NCBI GenBank assembly: GCA_031423795.1
Contig: JANPGH010000122.1
Span: forward strand, 5,603 to 69,602
Direction of reading: 5' to 3'
DNA: 64,000 bases
Source of the DNA: Elusimicrobiota bacterium
GTDB taxonomy: Bacteria; Elusimicrobiota; Elusimicrobia; UBA1565; UBA9628
Part shown: piece after piece, positions 3,573 to 28,399 of the stretch
Numbering within the stretch: the stretch's first letter is position 1
Layout: each line of letters begins with the position of its first letter
Translations under genes and position numbers: made by a program
Notes under the pieces: generated by a model
Database searches by the model: none
What the model saw: the letters and a program-made list of their open reading frames with translations, nothing else
Told to the model about the DNA's origin: nothing

Positions 3573-5111
3573 TCAGGATGGAGAGTCCTGCAGCAGTTGC
3601 AGAACTTTGCGAATGAACGTGGTCTTATCGAAAGGCTTGAGCATCACTTCTTGAGCGCCAGCTTCTTTGGCGCGCGCGATCGCGTCATTATAGCCGGTCA
3701 GCACCATCACTGGAATCCGTTCGGTTTCCGGCAGGCGACGCAGGCGTGAGATGACCTCGAAGCCGTCCATGCCCGGCATCATCACATCTAAGATCACGAG
3801 GTCGGGGGCCTTGTCCTTGATTTTTTCGAGCGCCTCGAAGCCCGACCGCGCCATCGTGATCTCGAGGTTGCGGCTGACGCTGGCCAAAAACAACATCAGC
3901 ACCTCGACCAGGTCGGGATTGTCCTCGACGATGAGCACGCGTTTCTTGTGCATGGTCTCGACAGCGTCGACGATCGCCGGCGCGGTTTGCGGCGAGCAGA
4001 TCGGCAGTTCCAGCAATGCAGTAGTACCCGATCCCGCGCCTTGGCTTTCCAGCCAGATCCGCCCGCCATGATGCTCGACGATTTCCTTTGAAAGTGGCAG
4101 TCCCAAGCCCAGTCCCGGATATTCCCGCGTTGGCCCTTGATTGGCCGCAAAGAAGCGTTCAAACACATGCGGCATTAGTTCCGGGGGGACGCCGGGCCCT
4201 TGATCGATCACCGACAGGCGAACGTGCTTGTCATGAACGCTCAAGCCAACGCGTAGGGTGCCTTCTGCCGGGCTAAACTTGGCCGCGTTTGAGAACAGGT
4301 TGCCGATTACGTCGCCGAGATTTTCCTCGTCAGCCAATACCCATTGCGGCGCGTCGCCGAGCTCCGCCTTGAGGACCAGCTTTTTACGCGCCAAGTCCTT
4401 TTCGGCGCGCTCAATTTGCGCTGATACGAGCGTTCTGAGATCGAGCGGCTTGCGCAGTAGGGGTTTCATCCCCTCGCTGATCTCGCGAATGCGCAGGATA
4501 TTATTGAGCGTCCCCATCAAGCCTTCCGCACGCTCGATGATCGCGGTCAACGCCTTTTGCTGGGGCTCGCTGAGAACCCCCATGCTCCCGTCGCGCATGG
4601 TGTTCGCATAGCCAATCACCACCGTGAGCGGCGTGCGCAATTCATGCGAAACGTTGGCGATGAATTCGTTTTTCATCTGATTAACCTGTCGCAGCTCCAT
4701 ATTTTGGTTCACCAGCTCGCGGATTTCGACCACGCGCCGTAGGAGTTGGGCCAGGTCGGCGTTGCGCAGGTCGCCGTGGGTCAAATAGTCCATCGCGCCC
4801 TTCTTCATCGCGGAAACGGCGATTTGCTCGGAGCCCGAGGCGGTGGTGAGGACGACGGCGGTCGTCGGGTGATGTTGGCGGATCTTATCTAGAATTTCCA
4901 AGCCGTTGGACGGGGGCAAGCGGTAATCAAGGAAAACGAGGTCAAAAATGAGGCCTTTAAGCTTCTGGAGAGCCTGCTCACCGTCGACGGCGATGTCGAC
5001 GAAAATTTTCCAGTTGGGTATATCCTCCAATTGGAACTTCAGCATATTCCGGTTAGTCGGTTCGTCGTCGACGACCAGAATTGCGAAGGACTGTTCGGCC
5101 GAATTCGTCAT
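3573..5111 (-). CDS. Hybrid sensor histidine kinase/response regulator (REC-HisKA-HATPase-REC) with no TM or sensor domain
   Basis: 512-aa track ORF. N-terminal receiver (ILVVDDEPTNRNML...DLVFLDYRLP). H-box NVSHELRTPL, N-box NLFSNAAKF, G-boxes DQGPGV and GLGLGL. C-terminal receiver (VLIVEDNPDL...DLVILDVMMPGMDG). Confidence 0.9.
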   Translation of the reverse strand: MTNSAEQSFAILVVDDEPTNRNMLKFQLEDIPNWKIFVDIAVDGEQALQKLKGLIFDLVFLDYRLPPSNGLEILDKIRQHHPTTAVVLTTASGSEQIAVSAMKKGAMDYLTHGDLRNADLAQLLRRVVEIRELVNQNMELRQVNQMKNEFIANVSHELRTPLTVVIGYANTMRDGSMGVLSEPQQKALTAIIERAEGLMGTLNNILRIREISEGMKPLLRKPLDLRTLVSAQIERAEKDLARKKLVLKAELGDAPQWVLADEENLGDVIGNLFSNAAKFSPAEGTLRVGLSVHDKHVRLSVIDQGPGVPPELMPHVFERFFAANQGPTREYPGLGLGLPLSKEIVEHHGGRIWLESQGAGSGTTALLELPICSPQTAPAIVDAVETMHKKRVLIVEDNPDLVEVLMLFLASVSRNLEITMARSGFEALEKIKDKAPDLVILDVMMPGMDGFEVISRLRRLPETERIPVMVLTGYNDAIARAKEAGAQEVMLKPFDKTTFIRKVLQLLQDSPS

Positions 5112-5231
5112 TGCGTTCGAATTGTAGCAGAGGAACCAAATGCCGTCCAGTGCTGGGAAAGGGCCGTCATCATAATGTTACAGGGAGGTCGTCCCGCCGA
5201 TATTGGGTTTTTGGCGACGTCGTCGTAGTAT

Positions 5232-6665
5232 TTGGGCATGGCCAGAAAACAATCGATGCAGAGCTTGCGAAAAGCTCTCGTTTGCTCATTCCTCACGACC
5301 GGGGTACTTTGGTCGGCGACGATCGCAGTGGCCGCGGCCGGGCTCGGGCGCGCGCCGGCGCACGAACTGATTCCGGCCGCCGGGGCACTGGCTCGGTCGA
5401 TACAAGTCGTACTAAGCATGCCCGGCCACAACATGGGCGTCGCTCCTTTCGAAATGCCGGGAGGAACCGGTGAAACCGTCGCCAAAACCAGACCACTTTT
5501 CGACGCACTCAAGGCGCTGGACCTGGGAGTAGACGCCGCCGCTTCGAATTCGGAGCAATATTCGATGCCCGTCGGGCAGGCGCAGCAGATATTCGTGGGG
5601 GCCGACAGGGTCCTGAGTCAAAATCCCTGGCACCATTTTGCGGAGGAGCATAACGCGCTGGCGGCTTTGCAATCAATCTCCCAAATCACTGGCGAACAGC
5701 ATGGACGCTTCACTGTGGTCAACGATCTTGCCGCGATCAACGACGTCATCGCGAATTTAGACGGATCGACGGTGCGTAACTCGGAAGGCGCCGGTTGGGC
5801 ACGCGTATTTGACAATTACCGGACGTTGGTCGACGCAAATCATGCTCGCGGAACGCCCCTACCGGAGCACGCCCCTCGAATCGCGAAAAATCCCGATCCC
5901 ATCAACCGGAAAATGCGCGAATTTTATCGCGCGATGATGCGAGGAACTTTAGAGGTGTTAAGCCCCACAGCCAGTTTGGGAAAAAAAGCCATCGCGCCCG
6001 AAGAGCTCAGCCATGAGGACGTCATGACCATCACGTACGCCAATTTCGAGCGCACCGCGCAAATCGTCCTACGCCGGGCGCCGCAATTGTCCGTGAGCCT
6101 GCGCACCGTCCAAGAGATCAATCGCAGTCTCACCGTTGGGCTGGTCGACGATTCCATCCGAGGGAAATTATTTCACGGAGACGCCTGGTTCCATCAGGAA
6201 GTCAAACAGTTCTACCGATTTCTGGAGACACCGAAGTTTCGCCGCTTCATGAGAAAGTTTCCGGTGGAGGCGGCGCACTGGATTCATTACGTCATTTCGG
6301 TTCAGGACGTTCTCCCAGATGCAAACAGCCGGACGTCCAAGATGATGGCTGACCTTATACTCCTGAAAGCGGGCCTGGCTCCCGCTTACTACGAAAGCAT
6401 GGACGAGTTTTTCGAGCAGGGTGGTCCCCGGTCGTCCTTGTCCGTCCAGCAGCGACTGAATTATTTTTACCGCATCGTTTCGCGCAGCCTCGAATTCGTC
6501 CGCGGCGAAATGAAAGTGCAACGCCCGAGCACCAGCGAAAGCCTTAAGGCGGCGCTGCTGTCTTCGCCTTACCACGAGGGCGTGGCGCCGACGCCGGAGT
6601 CGCGCCGTTCTCTCGTGGAATTTATGTCGATGGTCCATAGAGCCGAGCCTCGGAGACTTCAATAA
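5232..6665 (+). CDS. Signal/anchor-bearing protein with a Fic-fold core and a non-canonical motif (DVLPDANSRTSK)
   Basis: 477-aa track ORF with a TTG start at 5232 and an alternative ATG at 5238. Hydrophobic N-terminus ALVCSFLTTGVLWSATIAVAAAG. The segment PVEAAHWIHYVISVQDVLPDANSRTSKMMADLILLKAGLAP (motif at nt 6306-6341) aligns position for position with the Fic HxFx[DE][GA]N[GK]RxxR region. Confidence 0.6.
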   Translation: MGMARKQSMQSLRKALVCSFLTTGVLWSATIAVAAAGLGRAPAHELIPAAGALARSIQVVLSMPGHNMGVAPFEMPGGTGETVAKTRPLFDALKALDLGVDAAASNSEQYSMPVGQAQQIFVGADRVLSQNPWHHFAEEHNALAALQSISQITGEQHGRFTVVNDLAAINDVIANLDGSTVRNSEGAGWARVFDNYRTLVDANHARGTPLPEHAPRIAKNPDPINRKMREFYRAMMRGTLEVLSPTASLGKKAIAPEELSHEDVMTITYANFERTAQIVLRRAPQLSVSLRTVQEINRSLTVGLVDDSIRGKLFHGDAWFHQEVKQFYRFLETPKFRRFMRKFPVEAAHWIHYVISVQDVLPDANSRTSKMMADLILLKAGLAPAYYESMDEFFEQGGPRSSLSVQQRLNYFYRIVSRSLEFVRGEMKVQRPSTSESLKAALLSSPYHEGVAPTPESRRSLVEFMSMVHRAEPRRLQ

Positions 6666-9600
6666 ATGTTCGTCGTAAAAGCAACTTTTAAGAAAAAGGC
6701 CGCGGCGTTCGTCGTGCTAAGTTTAATCCTGGCGGCACCGTACCAGGCTTTCGCCATAGGCGAGATGATTCGCGTCGGCAGCGCGCGAACGTCGCAAGCA
6801 CCAATGCGAATCAATTCACTGCGGATTTCCGCGGACGGGGTTGCGTTGACGCGCAGTTTATACCAGGTGGCGGATCTGCAACGGCCGCCGAGCCCGGCGG
6901 CCATTCCGGTTTTGCCCGTTCCGGTGACGTCAGACTATTCGGGAGCCAATGCAGAAATTATTAGGGTCACTCCGGTCTTGCAGCCGGGCAATCATTCGGG
7001 AGCGATTCTTTCGGTCTTGACGCAGCGGCAGACCGAGTTAAGCGCAACCTTGGGTCGTTCAGGAGTTTCCGCTGACCAAGTTTCCAGGGCCGCGGGTTCC
7101 GCGATCGACGGAAGTGCTAATTCACAATATCGATATCTTGAAACCGACGAATTAGCCGGGAAAACCCTTTTGCTCGTCGGCTTTAGGAGATACCTGCCGT
7201 ACCTCATCCAGCAACCGATGAAATTGGGCGCGCAACACGGATTCAGCGTGAAGCTCATTGGTTATCCGCACGAGGCGGACGCCGCGGTGGCGTTGGGCGT
7301 GCCGCGAGAAAACTTCATCGGCGTGGACGATTTCGGGACGCACGATGAGACCACGGTCCAAACGATCGTCGCGCATGTGCGAGGAATCCACGCGCGAGAT
7401 CCTTTTCATGCCGTCAAAACCTTCACGAACTATGCGGCGTTCCTCGAAGGCAAATTACACGAGGCGCTCGGCCTTCCCGGGAATCTTCCGCGGGCGGTCG
7501 ACTTGTCCCAAAATAAGCAGGGAGCGCGCGTCGTGTGGAACGAAGATCCAGCCCTGCGCGTGCCGGCGAGGATCGTCGCGTCGGCCGAGGACGCCCGCCG
7601 TTTTTTCCGAGAGGCGCAGGCAGCAGGCTTTGACAAAATAGTTTTAAAGCCCTCTTCCGGTGGCGGTGGATTCCTAGCGAAGACCGAAATTGTAAGCGCC
7701 AAAGCAGCCGCGTTAGTCTTCCAAGAAATGAAGGCTAGGATCGATCAGGTCCGAGGCGATAAAATGAGGGCCCAGACCAAGGCCATGGATTTGAGTGTCG
7801 GCGTGCTGGCGGAAGCCCAAATTCCGGACATCGGGCCCGGCATCCCGCCGATCATGTTGGACGTGGAAATGCTGGTACAAAGAGGCAAGGTCGTCCACGC
7901 CACCATCAGCGTCAACTCGCCGTCGTATTTGGGAACCCAGGAAACCGGCACTACCTTCTCTTCTACGCTGTTTGATTCCTATCCGAAAATCAAAGAACTC
8001 ATTTTGAGAAATTCCGCCAAGGCAGTGCTGGGCATTGGACTGGAGGGGAATATCCATTTTGAGGCGTTTATTACGGTGATCGACGGCAAACCTGTCGTCC
8101 TTCCCATCGAGGCCAATCCCCGCATGGGCGGCAAAGACGTCTGGGAAAATGTCCTCGCTTCAGACGGGATCGACGTCCTGGGTCAAGGCGTTCTTGGGGC
8201 ATTCGGCGTGCGCATGGATCCGCGGACCGATCCCAAGCCCCTGCTCACCCAGATGAGGTCAGTCATTCCGCAATTCACCGGGAAACTCCGCGCGATTCGC
8301 GGGCTGGAGGCGCTGAAACAGGCCGGGGTTTACGGGCAATGGGACAAAGAGAACGGAGATAAAATCGAGGACATTTCCGGGCCCACCGGGAACTCGTCCG
8401 ACTACATTGGCTATTTCATGCTCGACGGGCTCGAGGAAGGGCCGACGCTTCATAAACTTCTGGCCGCGCTCGCTCAAGTCGAAATCGATATCGAGACGGC
8501 CGACGGCGTCATCCACACCCAAAAAGGCGATTTCGGCCACGAAACAAATCCCGATGATTACTTGGTCTCCAAACTTCTCAGCGAAATCCGCCGCCGCACC
8601 CAGTCCGCGCCGACGACCCCGCCGCAGCGGCCTTCGGCCGGCGGCCTTCTCGGCCGGATCCGTGACGCCGGAACGCGTTTCCCGGGATCCTATTACCGCT
8701 ACGTCGGCCTGAACGGCTTGTTAAGCTTTGCGGACGAAGGGCTTTCCGTAGCTTTCGCGATTTACGGAATCGCGCAGTTCGGGTTGGCGTGGGGGCTGTT
8801 GGCCCAGGCGCTTTACATTTTGGCGAAGGCGCCGGGTTCCGAAATGGCCGCGCGCCTCAATCACGGCCTTGATTCGATCAAAATCTTCGAGCTCACGACG
8901 AAGGTCAAAATCGGATTGATGCTCGTGCTTCCGGTGCTGGCTTGGACGCTGCCGTTCGGCTGGTTCCTGGCCGCTTTCTTGGCCTTGCAAACCGTACGCG
9001 GCCTGGTCAACGGCGCTTCACGCAACATGGCCGAGCCGGAGATGCTGCCGAACCTGGTCGGCCAAAAAAAATCGGATCTGGAAGTGGCCGGCCTTATGTC
9101 GGACACATTTATCGAAGGCTGCGCGATGACGGCGGCTTTTCTTTACCCGTGGATGCAGGGCCGACTCGACCATCTGTTTGGGCCGACGCTGGGCCCTGGC
9201 ATTCTGGTGGCGATTCTCGGCGCATTGACCGTCCCGAACCTGCTCTTGCTCAAGACAATCAAATACGCGCAGCCGTCGGCGTCAAACGTCGTTCCGCAAA
9301 AGGCAGGAGCGTTGGGAAGTGGCGTCGAGAGGCTGGATTGGCGCGATTACGTCCCCTATGTGGCAGCACATTTCGTGCATTCCGCACTTTACGGGGTGCT
9401 GGCTGCGGTCTTGGCTAAGTTCGTTTTTGGAGCGCCGCTGATCGCTGGAACGATGATAGGCTCCTATGACGCCGGGGCCTTGCTGGTGGGATTGATCGGC
9501 GGAAGCGCGGCACTTGCCGCCTCGGCGAAGGCCGGAAATGGCGAAAGGTCATTTGTCTCTAGCCTGCTATCTCCGAAGTCCTGGTTCGGTCTGACCATAT

Positions 9601-9944
9601 TGGCCACGACGGCGTTCTTGTTATCGAGCATGGCCCACTTGCCGCTCTTGAGTTTTGTTTCGGTCGCAGCCCTTGGCGCCTTGATCCTCGTCACTAAACG
9701 GGTATGGATGGCGTCGTATCAAAGCCGCCTAGTCCAGCAAGCCCACGGCCGGATGGCTTCCGCCGTCAATTCCATCGGCGTAATGGCGGCGTTGCTGCTG
9801 GTGTTCCTGCCGATCGCGGCGAGCTCCGTCATCGCCGGAACCGCCGACCTCATTCGGCCCGTGCTGTGGGGAATCAGCGGAACGACGATTGCCGGAATGG
9901 TTGCCGGTTGGTTCTTAAGCCGCAACCCGCCCAAAAACGATTAG
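6666..9944 (+). CDS. Fusion protein: N-terminal hydrophobic signal/anchor, ATP-grasp ligase module, and C-terminal 12-TM MFS-like membrane domain
   Basis: 1092-aa track ORF whose ATG directly abuts the upstream TAA (6663-6668). ATP-grasp hallmarks are FDKIVLKPSSGGGGF and IHFEAFITVIDGKPVVLPIEANPRMGG (about nt 7150-8560). A Pro-rich linker TTPPQRPSAGG follows. About 12 hydrophobic helices span about 8690 to 9941. Confidence 0.8.
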   Translation: MFVVKATFKKKAAAFVVLSLILAAPYQAFAIGEMIRVGSARTSQAPMRINSLRISADGVALTRSLYQVADLQRPPSPAAIPVLPVPVTSDYSGANAEIIRVTPVLQPGNHSGAILSVLTQRQTELSATLGRSGVSADQVSRAAGSAIDGSANSQYRYLETDELAGKTLLLVGFRRYLPYLIQQPMKLGAQHGFSVKLIGYPHEADAAVALGVPRENFIGVDDFGTHDETTVQTIVAHVRGIHARDPFHAVKTFTNYAAFLEGKLHEALGLPGNLPRAVDLSQNKQGARVVWNEDPALRVPARIVASAEDARRFFREAQAAGFDKIVLKPSSGGGGFLAKTEIVSAKAAALVFQEMKARIDQVRGDKMRAQTKAMDLSVGVLAEAQIPDIGPGIPPIMLDVEMLVQRGKVVHATISVNSPSYLGTQETGTTFSSTLFDSYPKIKELILRNSAKAVLGIGLEGNIHFEAFITVIDGKPVVLPIEANPRMGGKDVWENVLASDGIDVLGQGVLGAFGVRMDPRTDPKPLLTQMRSVIPQFTGKLRAIRGLEALKQAGVYGQWDKENGDKIEDISGPTGNSSDYIGYFMLDGLEEGPTLHKLLAALAQVEIDIETADGVIHTQKGDFGHETNPDDYLVSKLLSEIRRRTQSAPTTPPQRPSAGGLLGRIRDAGTRFPGSYYRYVGLNGLLSFADEGLSVAFAIYGIAQFGLAWGLLAQALYILAKAPGSEMAARLNHGLDSIKIFELTTKVKIGLMLVLPVLAWTLPFGWFLAAFLALQTVRGLVNGASRNMAEPEMLPNLVGQKKSDLEVAGLMSDTFIEGCAMTAAFLYPWMQGRLDHLFGPTLGPGILVAILGALTVPNLLLLKTIKYAQPSASNVVPQKAGALGSGVERLDWRDYVPYVAAHFVHSALYGVLAAVLAKFVFGAPLIAGTMIGSYDAGALLVGLIGGSAALAASAKAGNGERSFVSSLLSPKSWFGLTILATTAFLLSSMAHLPLLSFVSVAALGALILVTKRVWMASYQSRLVQQAHGRMASAVNSIGVMAALLLVFLPIAASSVIAGTADLIRPVLWGISGTTIAGMVAGWFLSRNPPKND

Positions 9945-11419
9945 CGCAGCGCTTCGTTGAGGACGCGGCTGGGACTGTTGACGGGAAATTGAAGCCCGAG
10001 GATATGCCCGAGAGTCGGAGCCAGATCCTCGGCCAACGCGGGTTGATCGTATTGGCCGGATCGGATGCCCAATCCCATGAAAACAAGCGGAACGCGTGCG
10101 TCGTAGTCGTAAGGAGTGCCGTGGCTGGTGCTGTACCCCGGGCTATCATCGGAGAACAAGACGCTTTCTTTGAGCACGACCATCAAATCTCCGGATCTTT
10201 CCAAGTGGTAACTGCGCCTTACCATGTTCGCGAGTGGGTCGCCAGCAGGATCTTTTCCAAATAGGTCATCGGGCGAAAACACCCGGGCGACTGCGGGATT
10301 ACGGATTAAAATTCGGGCCGCCGTATGCCGAACGCGGGCCGCGTCGACGCCGAGTTCCTTGGCCATCGGCAGGTTGAGATAAACGTTCGGTAAGTTGACG
10401 TTCACCACCCAGGTTTTGCCCTTTTGTGGAGCGCCAAGCTCTTTGCTCAAATCCGTTTCGACCGCGGCCAGGAATGAGGCGCCGTTCAAGCGCACGGCCC
10501 CCATTTTTTTGCCCGCGTCGCTCTCCGGAGAGGGTAATACCCCGTGATCCGCGGACAAGGCGAAAGTGTAATTTCCGCGCCCGAACCGTTGGTCCAAGTC
10601 GTCCAAGAAATAGCCCAATTCCCGGTCTAAAGCGAGCAATTGATTGTGCATTTCCAGGCTGTCGGGTCCTTTTTGGTGACCGATGACATCAGTCGCCGAG
10701 AGGCTTACGGTCAAGAGGTCGGGTGCGTCGTGTTTGCCGAGATTTTCCTCCTCGAGCGCGCGCCGAGCTAAAGCCAATGTCAAAACGTCGAAAAGCGGGG
10801 TGCGGCGCAGGTCTTTGCGTTGATCCGCTGGGTTGCCGAGCGCGGCGTCCCATTTCTTCACCCAATCCGGCACGGAGGGGTAATAGGCGCTGCTAGCGAA
10901 TTCGCCGGTGGACGTCTCATACCACAGCACTAAATCGGGTTTGTGGCCGCCCATCAAGATCGCGGCGCGGTCCTTCCCGGAGATGGAGATGACTTTGGAG
11001 CCCGGCGAGGCGGCCTTCAACACGTCGCCCAAGCTCGGGCACAATTCTCTTTTCGGACTTTTCCCGAGTTCGGTATCGTCTACGGAGTAGATTTCCTTGC
11101 CCGTCGTTCGATCCCACCAATCGTTGGCGACGATGCCGTGCTGCGCCGGGAAGCAGCCTGTGAGCAGGGCCGCGTGGCCCGGGGCCGTCTCGGTGGGGAC
11201 ATGTCCATGCCGAGCTTGCGTGAATATCGCGCCTTCGGAATTCAAGCGGGCCAGTCCACCGATGTATTCGCGGGAGAAACGTTGCAGGTAGTCTGCCCGC
11301 ATTTGGTCGACTGCTACGACGATCGTCATTTTAGGCGCCGCGGCGCCGGCCGAAATCGAAAAGGCGGCGACAAGGCTGAAAACGGCCGAAGTTCGGATAA
11401 AAAAACGGTCGACGGTCAT
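9941..11419 (-). CDS. Alkaline-phosphatase-superfamily protein (type I phosphodiesterase/nucleotide pyrophosphatase-like), secreted
   Basis: 492-aa track ORF with a signal-like N-terminus (SAVFSLVAAFSISAGAAAP). Motifs: VAVDQMRADYL, GHVPTETAPGHAALLTG, SADHG, TSHGTPYDYD. Confidence 0.85.
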   Translation of the reverse strand: MTVDRFFIRTSAVFSLVAAFSISAGAAAPKMTIVVAVDQMRADYLQRFSREYIGGLARLNSEGAIFTQARHGHVPTETAPGHAALLTGCFPAQHGIVANDWWDRTTGKEIYSVDDTELGKSPKRELCPSLGDVLKAASPGSKVISISGKDRAAILMGGHKPDLVLWYETSTGEFASSAYYPSVPDWVKKWDAALGNPADQRKDLRRTPLFDVLTLALARRALEEENLGKHDAPDLLTVSLSATDVIGHQKGPDSLEMHNQLLALDRELGYFLDDLDQRFGRGNYTFALSADHGVLPSPESDAGKKMGAVRLNGASFLAAVETDLSKELGAPQKGKTWVVNVNLPNVYLNLPMAKELGVDAARVRHTAARILIRNPAVARVFSPDDLFGKDPAGDPLANMVRRSYHLERSGDLMVVLKESVLFSDDSPGYSTSHGTPYDYDARVPLVFMGLGIRSGQYDQPALAEDLAPTLGHILGLQFPVNSPSRVLNEALR

Positions 11420-11470
11420 TGAATCTTCCCCCTTGGAGTGCGAGCGTGCATTTTAGCAACAAAGATGAAG

Positions 11471-11496
11471 CCGCCGCCCTACGTGCGGGGCGGCGG
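11471..11496 (-). terminator. GC-rich hairpin downstream of the 156-aa gene; candidate intrinsic terminator
   Basis: CCGCCGCCC (11471-11479), a 7-nt loop, then GGGCGGCGG within 11487-11496. On the minus strand it is followed by a moderately T-rich stretch (cttcatctttgtt). Confidence 0.4.
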
Positions 11497-11508
11497 GTAC
11501 GGGACGGC

Positions 11509-11979
11509 TTACTCTTTATCGCAGACGGCGGAATCAGCGCGAACGTCCAGTATTTGATGGATAGGCGCGTTGTGGTCCGAGGGCACTTCTGAGCTGCCCA
11601 CGCTGATCGTCGTGCTCATCGGATGAACGCCGTCCGAATTCCAAAAGGCCTTAAAGTGGGTGACGTAGTTATCCGCTTCGCCGGGTTTGGGGGCGCCTTT
11701 GGCGGTCTCGATCTCGGCGACGCCCATATAAGGCAGTACCTTGGGACAACGCTGTGCGACGGCGGCCAAGACCTGCGAGCGCAGTTTTACGGGCAGCGCC
11801 GACTTGGGACCGAAAGAACGCGTCACGGCATCGTCCGATAGGGCGACGACGACATTCATGTTCGTACGGCAGGTGGCCGCTACCTGGCGGGCTTCGGCTA
11901 GACACTGTTCCAGGGACGCGGTTTCGGCGGATGCGGAAACTGCGGCGGATATTATCACGACGACGATCATGGTGCGCAT
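11509..11979 (-). CDS. Small secreted hypothetical protein (4 Cys)
   Basis: 156-aa track ORF with signal peptide MRTMIVVVIISAAVSASAETA. No recognisable motif. Confidence 0.55.
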   Translation of the reverse strand: MRTMIVVVIISAAVSASAETASLEQCLAEARQVAATCRTNMNVVVALSDDAVTRSFGPKSALPVKLRSQVLAAVAQRCPKVLPYMGVAEIETAKGAPKPGEADNYVTHFKAFWNSDGVHPMSTTISVGSSEVPSDHNAPIHQILDVRADSAVCDKE

Positions 11980-12130
11980 ATCTGTTTCACCTCGCTTTGA
12001 TTTACGGTCAAGTCATTGTACGCCCGCATGATTTGAATCGGGTGCCGACGGGGTAAAGACTGCGTGACGATGGGATGCGTGCCGCCCGTCAATTGATCTG
12101 GGGGGCCGGAAAAGCTATCCTAGCCCTTCG

Positions 12131-28049: not shown

Positions 28050-28343
28050 TTGGAGATCACCGAGATCCGCATCCACTTACGCAACGAAGACAAGCTCAAG
28101 GCCTTCGCGACGGTGACGTTCGACCAATGTTTTGTCGTTCGCAACATGAAATTGATTGAAGGCGAAAAAGGTTTGATCCTCTGCATGCCATCTCGCAAAA
28201 TGTCCGACGGCTCCTTCAAGGATGTCGCGCATCCCATTTCCGCTGAGTTCCGGTCGTCTCTGGAGAAAAAGGTCTTCGAGCGCTACGAGTTAGAGCGCCA
28301 AAAGACCGCGGCCGGATCCGGCGCCGGCTCCCGGGTGGTGTAA
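28050..28343 (+). CDS. spoVG: Septation protein SpoVG
   Basis: MEITEIRIHLRNEDKLKAFATVTFDQCFVVRNMKLIEGEKGLILCMPSRK. TTG start. The last 15 nt, including the stop codon, lie inside tRNA-Gln. Confidence 0.88.
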   Translation: MEITEIRIHLRNEDKLKAFATVTFDQCFVVRNMKLIEGEKGLILCMPSRKMSDGSFKDVAHPISAEFRSSLEKKVFERYELERQKTAAGSGAGSRVV

Positions 28344-28399
28344 CGGTAACACAGCGGACTTTGAATCCGTTATTCCTGGTTCGAGTCCAGGCCTGGGAA
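28329..28399 (+). tRNA. tRNA-Gln (anticodon UUG), no encoded CCA
   Basis: Folded by hand. Acceptor stem TCCCGGG/CCTGGGA, with a U1:A72 pair. D stem GTGT/ACAC. Anticodon stem GCGGA/TCCGT with loop CT-TTG-AA. T stem CCTGG/CCAGG with loop TTCGAGT. Total length 71 nt. Confidence 0.9.

Follow-up and report, generated by a model that had tools for sequence, protein, structure and literature searches.

How does a protein that begins like an exported one come to carry an ATP-dependent enzyme and a transporter in the same chain? The question is raised by a gene at positions 6666..9944 (+) of a 64,000-nucleotide stretch of contig JANPGH010000122.1 from an Elusimicrobiota bacterium (the window, by which we mean the whole stretch of DNA analysed), encoding a protein of 1092 amino acids (aa), P0001. 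In a preliminary description, made from the DNA alone, this single open reading frame (ORF) had been divided into a signal-like N-terminus, about 130 aa of unfamiliar sequence, an ATP-grasp ligase module and a linker leading into about 12 hydrophobic helices. All four parts are present according to both sequence and AlphaFold2 modelling, so that the gene can be described as a signal-like/disordered/ATP-grasp/linker/transporter fusion. Our reading is that P0001 is a bifunctional inner-membrane protein, in which a cytoplasmic ligase of the L-amino-acid ligase (LAL) type would be tethered to a 12-transmembrane-helix (12-TM) transporter of the major facilitator superfamily (MFS) and would couple ligation with transport within a four-gene cassette; we put the probability of this reading as a whole at about 0.5. 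Its structural part, an MFS transporter to whose cytoplasmic side a LAL-type ligase with intact catalytic residues is attached, is either directly observed or strongly predicted.

A fusion of this kind invites suspicion, and the integrity of the gene has to be considered before its meaning. Positions 6666-9944 (+) form one uninterrupted frame of 1092 codons, the TAA of the upstream gene (6663-6665) abuts the ATG at 6666, and a GGAG is located about 11 nucleotides 5′ of this ATG. A protein identical to P0001 was also found on a Logan contig of run SRR20217181, which constitutes a second assembly record. Homologues from other sources have the same layout: P0002, a protein of 1151 aa found in an ENA metagenome, has 38% identity to P0001 and is collinear with it from the signal-like segment through the last helix; a 1117-aa copy from a metagenome-assembled genome (MAG) of Elusimicrobia, obtained through a GTDB scan (locus L003), is 31-32% identical and collinear over its full length; and P0015 has the same architecture as P0001. 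The weak codon-position GC periodicity in the disordered tail behind the signal-like segment and the internal Met codons at aa 35 and 48 might raise the suspicion that unrelated genes were joined through a frameshift or a chimeric assembly, or that the start was misassigned. The periodicity of the tail, however, is uninformative because of its Ala/Pro/Ser/Gly composition. Considering the abutting upstream stop and the GGAG, the identical second record, the same domain order in more than ten divergent homologues, and the signal-like N-terminus and its PYQA[LF]A motif retained at 31-38% overall identity, we give an artefact hardly any credence, and the frameshift or chimera that the preliminary description had named as its possible undoing can be dismissed.

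The full-length AlphaFold2 model of P0001, for which 38 family sequences served as input, has a mean pLDDT (predicted local distance difference test score) of 81. It splits the protein into a low-confidence region (aa 1-155), a confidently modelled alpha/beta region (aa ~160-625), a linker (aa 626-673) and an all-helical membrane region (aa 674-1084). The domain assignments given below rest on homologues, profiles and structure models, P0001 alone being sub-threshold in Pfam.

The alpha/beta region (aa ~160-625; 7143..8540 (+)), with pLDDT mostly above 90, has three ATP-grasp subdomains and a LAL C-terminal domain. When the model of this region was compared with known structures using Foldseek, the top matches were 3VOT (TM-score 0.79), BacD and RizA, while PurK, PurT, PurD and biotin carboxylases ranked below. 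As a single sequence, the ATP-grasp domain of P0001 produced marginal matches only in a search against the PDB, and in Pfam P0001 alone remained below threshold (ATPgrasp_N, 21 bits; LAL_C2, 18.9 bits). A profile of nine ATP-grasp domains of the family matched almost the entire length of BL00235 (3VOT) with E = 1e-34, and BacD with E = 8e-25, and P0002 passes the thresholds of Pfam ATP-grasp_4, ATP-grasp_3 and LAL_C2. Membership in the LAL family is therefore established at the sequence level through P0002 and the nine-sequence profile, and the resemblance to L-amino-acid ligases suggested in the preliminary description is well founded.

Both the motif KIVLKPSSGGGGF and the segment IEANPRMGG were found at the places given for them in that description. 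P0001 and P0002 are identical at K328-P329, in the GGGG loop (G332-G335) and at E466, E482, N484, R486 and G488-G489; the Lys-Pro, E466, E482, N484, R486 and GG columns are invariant in the alignment of nine members, and the Mg2+/ATP residues of P0001 align with the E-x-x-x-R-x-G-G segment of 3VOT and BacD. With its nucleotide- and Mg2+-binding residues invariant, the ligase domain looks catalytically competent and ATP-dependent. It shares with the solved LALs (BL00235/3VOT, BacD/YwfE 3VMM and RizA 4WD3) the three-subdomain ATP-grasp fold, the LAL C-terminal domain and the ATP/Mg2+ residues, but its identity to them is just 14-18%, and whereas the known LALs are soluble, stand-alone proteins of ~400-470 aa, the ligase of P0001 sits inside a 1092-aa membrane protein. 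At the site aligned with BacD residue 332, which was mutated in 3WO1, P0001 has Lys and most of its relatives have Ala. Split versions, or stand-alone ligases closely related to it, were also sought in a word-index search using the ATP-grasp profile, which retrieved five distant LAL-like proteins only.

The ligase is followed by an Arg/Pro-rich linker, RRRTQSAPTTPPQRPSAGG (aa 626-673; 8541..8684 (+)), which has a short amphipathic helix at aa 661-669, is predicted to be cytoplasmic, and runs into 12 helices at aa 674-1084 (8685..9917 (+)). For this membrane region, P0001 alone gave no Pfam MFS match, and a profile of the full family, to which the membrane domain contributes most, had no sequence match in the PDB; fold comparison was therefore used. 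The AlphaFold2 model of the membrane domain alone (pLDDT 87.7, predicted TM-score 0.88) has helices consistent with 12 TM segments in two six-helix bundles. Its top 50 PDB matches are all MFS proteins, among them MelB, ferroportin, OxlT, VGLUT2, sialin and FucP, with TM-scores of 0.6-0.7 over ~430-470 columns; such scores are reached with many structures, and no particular MFS subfamily stands out. In sequence, 20 of 38 homologues match Pfam MFS_1 at E ≤ 0.01 (best 1.1e-15), and P0013 scores 54 bits (cut-off 33.4), aligned from TM1 onward. The proposal that the hydrophobic helices resemble an MFS transporter thus holds, with Foldseek returning MFS structures only, and the reservation that the C-terminal half might prove not to be a transporter loses its ground.

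In common with MFS transporters (MFS_1; MelB, ferroportin, OxlT, FucP), the domain has the 12-TM two-bundle fold, a predicted N-in/C-in orientation, a long central loop and a K/R-rich TM2-TM3 loop. Unlike them, it is very divergent in sequence, and it is preceded by a signal-like segment and a disordered tail of 100-230 aa, which is not a known feature of MFS proteins. One homologue departs from the 12-helix pattern: in P0002 (L001 5717-9172) the MFS core is preceded, at residues ~630-700, by an additional pair of TM helices, giving 14 helices, and this pair looks like a duplicate of the TM3-TM4 hairpin together with the following loop motif (YPVIAGYFHDAARSQVNPRFVGQEN vs QLIGGLIYGATRGMAENQIMPHLVGQDK). 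Because the number of helices is still even, the side of the ligase is unchanged.

On which side of the membrane, then, does the ligase lie? Helix boundaries from AlphaFold2 were projected onto 37 aligned members, and Lys and Arg residues (K+R) were counted. The linker (23 residues before TM1), loops 2-3, 4-5, 6-7, 8-9 and 10-11, and the C-tail together carry a mean of 24.6 K+R, versus 0.7 on the alternating loops; the 23 residues before TM1 alone contribute a mean of 4.2. As a statistical prediction based on the positive-inside rule, this corresponds almost unambiguously to the N-in/C-in orientation with cytoplasmic TM2-3 and central loops typical of the MFS, and it argues strongly that the linker, and hence the ATP-grasp domain, is cytoplasmic. 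Consistent with a cytoplasmic C-terminus, in P0032 (L008 8001-11006) the ATP-grasp domain comes after the MFS domain, and in P0016 a weak nucleotidyltransferase-like match likewise falls at the C-terminus. The preliminary description had noticed that a signal or anchor at the N-terminus would place an ATP-dependent domain outside the cytoplasm, and had concluded that the start codon, the topology or the chemistry must be unusual. The conflict is real and family-wide. The start codon is upheld by the conserved N-terminus, and with a ligase predicted to be cytoplasmic the odd element is the N-terminal segment and not the chemistry.

The same data bear on the opposite solution, in which the signal peptide is functional and the tail and ATP-grasp domain are exported to act in the periplasm, perhaps with ATP supplied by the MFS domain. 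Standard n-, h- and c-region features with AxA ends in ~30 members would suit this scheme. So would the origin of all the fused enzyme types in nucleotide-dependent families, and the example of FICD, the closest solved relative of a Fic-like domain that replaces the ligase in some members, which is N-terminally anchored and faces the lumen of the endoplasmic reticulum. Yet it would need an upside-down MFS domain with all of its K/R-rich loops outside, against a ratio of 24.6 to 0.7, and the enzyme domain at the C-terminus of P0032 adjoins the K/R-rich tail. To our knowledge, no inverted MFS protein has been described. Given the charge distribution and the C-terminal enzyme modules, we discarded a periplasmic ATP-grasp domain with an inverted MFS domain as highly improbable.

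The N-terminal segment itself (aa 1-30; 6666..6755 (+)), MFVVKATFKKKAAAFVVLSLILAAPYQAFA, was judged, here and in the homologues, by inspection only. It consists of a K-rich n-region with a charge of +4, a hydrophobic core of 13 residues and an AFA end, in the order MFVVKATFKKK / AAAFVVLSLILAA / PYQAFA, followed by IGE, with a Pro preceding the A-x-A; this is the tripartite n/h/c pattern with small residues at -3 and -1. The same build is seen in nearly every complete member of the family (~30), with a positive n-region leading into a hydrophobic core (12-16 residues), which is followed by a Pro/Gly break and an end of the A-x-A type. In the subgroup of P0001, P0002, P0003 and P0015 the motif (A)PYQA[LF]A is shared despite 31-38% overall identity, and when PYQA[LF]A-type motifs were sought on the other proteins of the fetched loci, they were found in family members only.

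The segment is followed by a low-complexity tail (aa 31-155; 6756..7130 (+)) with pLDDT mostly below 50. AlphaFold2 models aa 2-38 as a helix at pLDDT ~45-60, leaves aa 39-110 unstructured and places helices at aa 111-131 and 136-147. The latter correspond to a conserved motif at aa 111-148 (window positions 6996-7109), LSVLTQRQTELS...AIDG, whose residues are conserved with P0002. In general form, L..RQ.E...L followed ~25 residues on by (L/V/A)(F/I)DG, the motif occurs at the end of an otherwise unalignable tail, and an xFDG-like motif is present near the tail end in most of 28 members checked.

How could such an N-terminus be reconciled with a cytoplasmic ligase? A Sec signal, cleaved or not, inserted in the usual N-in orientation would leave the tail outside with no way back in. 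The chain behind the segment does not appear to follow this course, as the linker before TM1 is placed in the cytoplasm by the prediction and, in hydropathy windows of 19 residues, no second segment of TM strength was found between the signal-like element and TM1 in most members. Several ways out were considered. A hidden second TM helix in the tail does not fit, the best 19-residue windows being mostly below TM strength, Pro-rich and inconsistent across members. A re-entrant helix of the PglC kind is conceivable but less probable; what comes behind the Pro/Gly break is too short and too polar for a second arm, and AxA ends are more in keeping with an ordinary signal peptide. An N-out anchor is contradicted by the charge distribution, and a wrong start by the conservation of the N-terminus. 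The N-terminal helix and tail form a module shared throughout the family, whose most likely role is to hold the N-terminus at the membrane, as an anchor or tether, and not to export the enzyme.

To place P0001 in its family, we performed an exhaustive HMMER search with a profile of the membrane domain against 1.84 billion representative proteins (E ≤ 0.001). Only 48 proteins with a P0001-type membrane domain were retrieved, a number that, judged by sequence, marks the family as rare and far from mainstream MFS sequences. All members with a source name come from Elusimicrobia/Elusimicrobiota MAGs, and the named ones bear no annotation beyond 'hypothetical protein', 'MFS transporter' or 'biotin carboxylase'. 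The window agrees with this origin, its FtsH being 77-89% identical to FtsH of named Elusimicrobiota. While the MFS core is constant across the 48 proteins, the part attached to it varies. About half of them are ~560-700 aa long and consist of a signal-like N-terminus, 100-230 aa rich in Ala/Pro/Ser/Gly, and the MFS domain. At least 10 members carry a LAL-type ATP-grasp domain between tail and MFS core, so that the fusion sought in other genomes at the suggestion of the preliminary description does recur there. P0009, P0010, P0012 and P0042 have a Fic-like domain where these carry the ligase; in P0016 the C-terminus is extended by a stretch that contains an HWGH motif and matches cytidylyltransferase-like proteins (Pfam CTP_transf_like) weakly and below threshold (E = 0.016); P0011 and P0033 have an extra domain without an assigned identity; and in P0030 only a remnant of the ATP-grasp N-domain is left. 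Because several members have no ligase or merely its remnant, the transporter is not dependent on the ligase, and that several lineages have lost it agrees with the attached enzymes being accessories that modify the cargo.

The variation may be read more boldly, namely, as a modular system specific to Elusimicrobiota, with one MFS core, interchangeable cytoplasmic modules (LAL ligase, Fic-like, possibly nucleotidyltransferase-like) and a functional N-terminal module. In that case the signal-like N-terminus and tail could be a new element, either threaded or anchored at the outer face of the membrane with the enzyme inside, or acting as a membrane-inserted 'ball-and-chain' regulator of the transporter. 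We offer this as a tentative proposal with the odds clearly against it; if true, it would give MFS proteins a means of membrane topology or targeting for which no precedent has been described among them.

The fusion gene is part of a strain-specific insert of ~6.97 kb (5132..12106) with four genes, located between a conserved histidine-kinase/response-regulator gene and hpt-ftsH-folP. In two relatives (L013 and L014), whose FtsH is 92% and 90% identical to that of the window, the kinase gene and hpt are adjacent and the four genes are absent. According to blastn boundaries, the conserved blocks are 55 bp apart in L013 and 6,975 bp apart in the window. Since the four genes are missing at the same site in two relatives, the Fic-like gene, the fusion gene, the phosphodiesterase gene and a 156-aa ORF constitute an accessory insert. 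Its ends showed neither direct nor inverted terminal repeats, apart from matches of a size expected by chance, and there is no integrase within it. A hybrid histidine kinase with two receiver domains (3573-5111 (-)) is transcribed away from the insert; because its position is conserved in relatives, it is probably not part of the cassette. A scan for promoters and terminators stayed at background level, and an Rfam scan of the window found only one tRNA, 28329-28399 (+), far from the fusion gene.

The gene upstream of the fusion (5238..6665 (+)) encodes a stand-alone Fic-like protein with a hydrophobic N-terminus. The protein alone has no Pfam match. Over 355 aa it shares 35% identity with the N-terminal domain of P0009 (E = 2e-54), and it ends exactly where the fused homologues run on into the MFS linker. 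P0009 and P0012 score ~24 bits on Pfam Fic (cut-off 24), and a profile of five Fic-like sequences matches human FICD with E = 4e-10 over the core helices. The catalytic HxFx(D/E)GNGRxxR motif is not complete, as the window protein reads DVLPDANSRTSK and the His column is occupied by Asp in all five aligned sequences (the window protein, P0009, P0010, P0012 and P0042). Judged by its sequence, the upstream gene codes for a Fic-fold protein without the standard catalytic residue. It resembles Fic proteins of the FICD/HYPE kind in the Fic core helices, the ...NGRTxR... part of the motif and an N-terminal hydrophobic segment, and differs from them, as do its four fused relatives, in having Asp in place of the catalytic His, because of which AMPylation by the standard mechanism is doubtful.

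Downstream, the fusion gene is convergent, with a 4-nucleotide overlap, with a gene for a type I phosphodiesterase/nucleotide pyrophosphatase (9941..11419 (-); Pfam PF01663, E = 3.7e-45) with a signal-peptide-like N-terminus, and the last gene of the insert is the 156-aa ORF (11509..11979 (-)), which has no Pfam match. A homologue of the phosphodiesterase (42% identity, E = 1e-130; L005 2942-4378) is found one gene away from the short-form P0013 in L005/L006, which belongs to another Elusimicrobiota MAG, with a gene for a periplasmic-type Endonuclease_1 protein in between. This recurrence hints at a functional link with the MFS family, which may have to do with the breakdown of extracellular nucleotides or phosphodiesters. 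Other homologues have different neighbours: P0032 is accompanied by a 1089-aa PGM1_C ATP-grasp protein, a gamma-glutamyltranspeptidase and an alanine racemase, P0014 by Wzy_C and a poly-gamma-glutamate hydrolase, and P0002 by ACT, GATase_4 and PMT_2 proteins. The neighbourhood evidence comes from few and often short contigs, the GTDB scan having contributed one locus and two metagenome scans nothing and then three short contigs.

From these observations, the following mechanism can be proposed for P0001. At the expense of ATP and through an acyl-phosphate intermediate, the ligase would couple an amine with a carboxylate, the latter probably an amino acid, and its product would be a small amide-linked compound such as a dipeptide. 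The Arg/Pro-rich linker would tie the cytoplasmic ligase to the cytoplasmic N-terminus of the MFS domain, which would then move the product across the membrane. The N-terminal helix and tail would anchor or tether the N-terminus at the membrane, and the fusion protein would work together with the Fic-like protein, the secreted-type phosphodiesterase and the small ORF as an accessory cassette. Two known arrangements are close to this. In dipeptide antibiotic clusters, a LAL and an MFS exporter, such as those encoded by bacD and bacE in bacilysin biosynthesis, act on the same small amide-linked molecule; those, however, are two proteins of a dedicated biosynthetic cluster, whereas P0001 is one chain with no precursor genes nearby and an extra N-terminal module. 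The second is the lysyl-phosphatidylglycerol synthase/flippase fusion MprF, to which the preliminary description had likened the protein. Here too a cytoplasmic synthase is fused to a membrane translocation domain and the product is moved across the membrane, but the MprF synthase uses aminoacyl-tRNA, not an ATP-grasp domain, and the flippase part of MprF is not known to be counted among the MFS. A Pfam scan of P0001 at E ≤ 1 gave only ATPgrasp_N and LAL_C2 and no MprF-related match. The analogy survives as an idea, not as kinship of either domain, and a coupling of synthesis with export remains conjectural.

Several observations weigh against the coupled ligase-transporter proposed here. P0003, P0005 and P0030 have no ligase or retain a mere remnant of it; P0001 alone misses the Pfam thresholds for ATP-grasp families and has no MFS match; Pfam found no precursor-biosynthesis genes flanking the fusion gene in the window; and the gene neighbourhoods of the homologues are not conserved. 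In addition, the N-terminal segment resembles a standard Sec signal peptide with AxA ends family-wide, and there is no second membrane span to return the chain to the cytoplasm, which counts against the proposed role as anchor and not as export signal. Finally, substrate, product and direction of transport cannot be read from sequence. Import followed by trapping is a direction nearly as likely as export: the MFS domain might import an amine or a carboxylate, possibly one released by the phosphodiesterase, and the ligase would conjugate it at the cytoplasmic mouth, a vectorial ligation in the manner of the LplT-Aas pair for lysophospholipid transport and re-acylation. A ligase tethered at the cytoplasmic face is well placed for this, the fusion gene has no biosynthetic cluster around it, and a PF01663 phosphodiesterase with a signal-peptide-like N-terminus lies beside it, with the 42%-identical one near P0013. 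The phosphodiesterase link, however, is limited to two lineages (the window and L005/L006) and does not extend to all loci, the sequence gives no transport direction in favour of import either, and the characterised LALs BacD, RizA and TabS make products that are exported. We regard import and trapping as possible, at odds of about one in four.

The neighbours of P0032 and P0014 suggest yet another role, in which a peptide, a poly-amino-acid or the protein's own tail would receive amino acids from the ATP-grasp domain, in the way known from RimK and PGM1, and the MFS domain would extrude or present the product. PGM1_C, gamma-glutamyltranspeptidase and alanine racemase in the one case and poly-gamma-glutamate hydrolase and Wzy_C in the other would suit such chemistry, as would the family-wide retention of a disordered tail with a short conserved motif. 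But neighbours of this suggestive kind are missing from the window, the best matches of the ligase are free-amino-acid ligases, with RimK and PGM1 absent among the matches listed, and we know of no MFS protein that moves polymers, which makes polymer modification an unlikely explanation for P0001.

Both domains of P0001 are of known kinds; what is new is their combination in a single chain, the interchangeable enzyme modules on a rare MFS core, and the signal-like N-terminal module found throughout the family. In full-text literature searches, neither a single chain made up of ATP-grasp ligase and MFS transporter nor the family itself was found to be described; the preliminary description, too, knew of no characterised example. 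If ligation and transport are coupled, P0001 would represent a compact one-gene module to make and move small amide compounds, which could interest producers of dipeptides with LALs. The N-terminus poses a puzzle of membrane-protein biogenesis, as a standard-looking signal peptide precedes domains otherwise placed in the cytoplasm in ~30 divergent proteins, and its solution would reveal either a new use of signal-like sequences or a blind spot of topology prediction. For Elusimicrobiota, a phylum known mostly from metagenomes, the P0001 family may help to explain accessory physiology.

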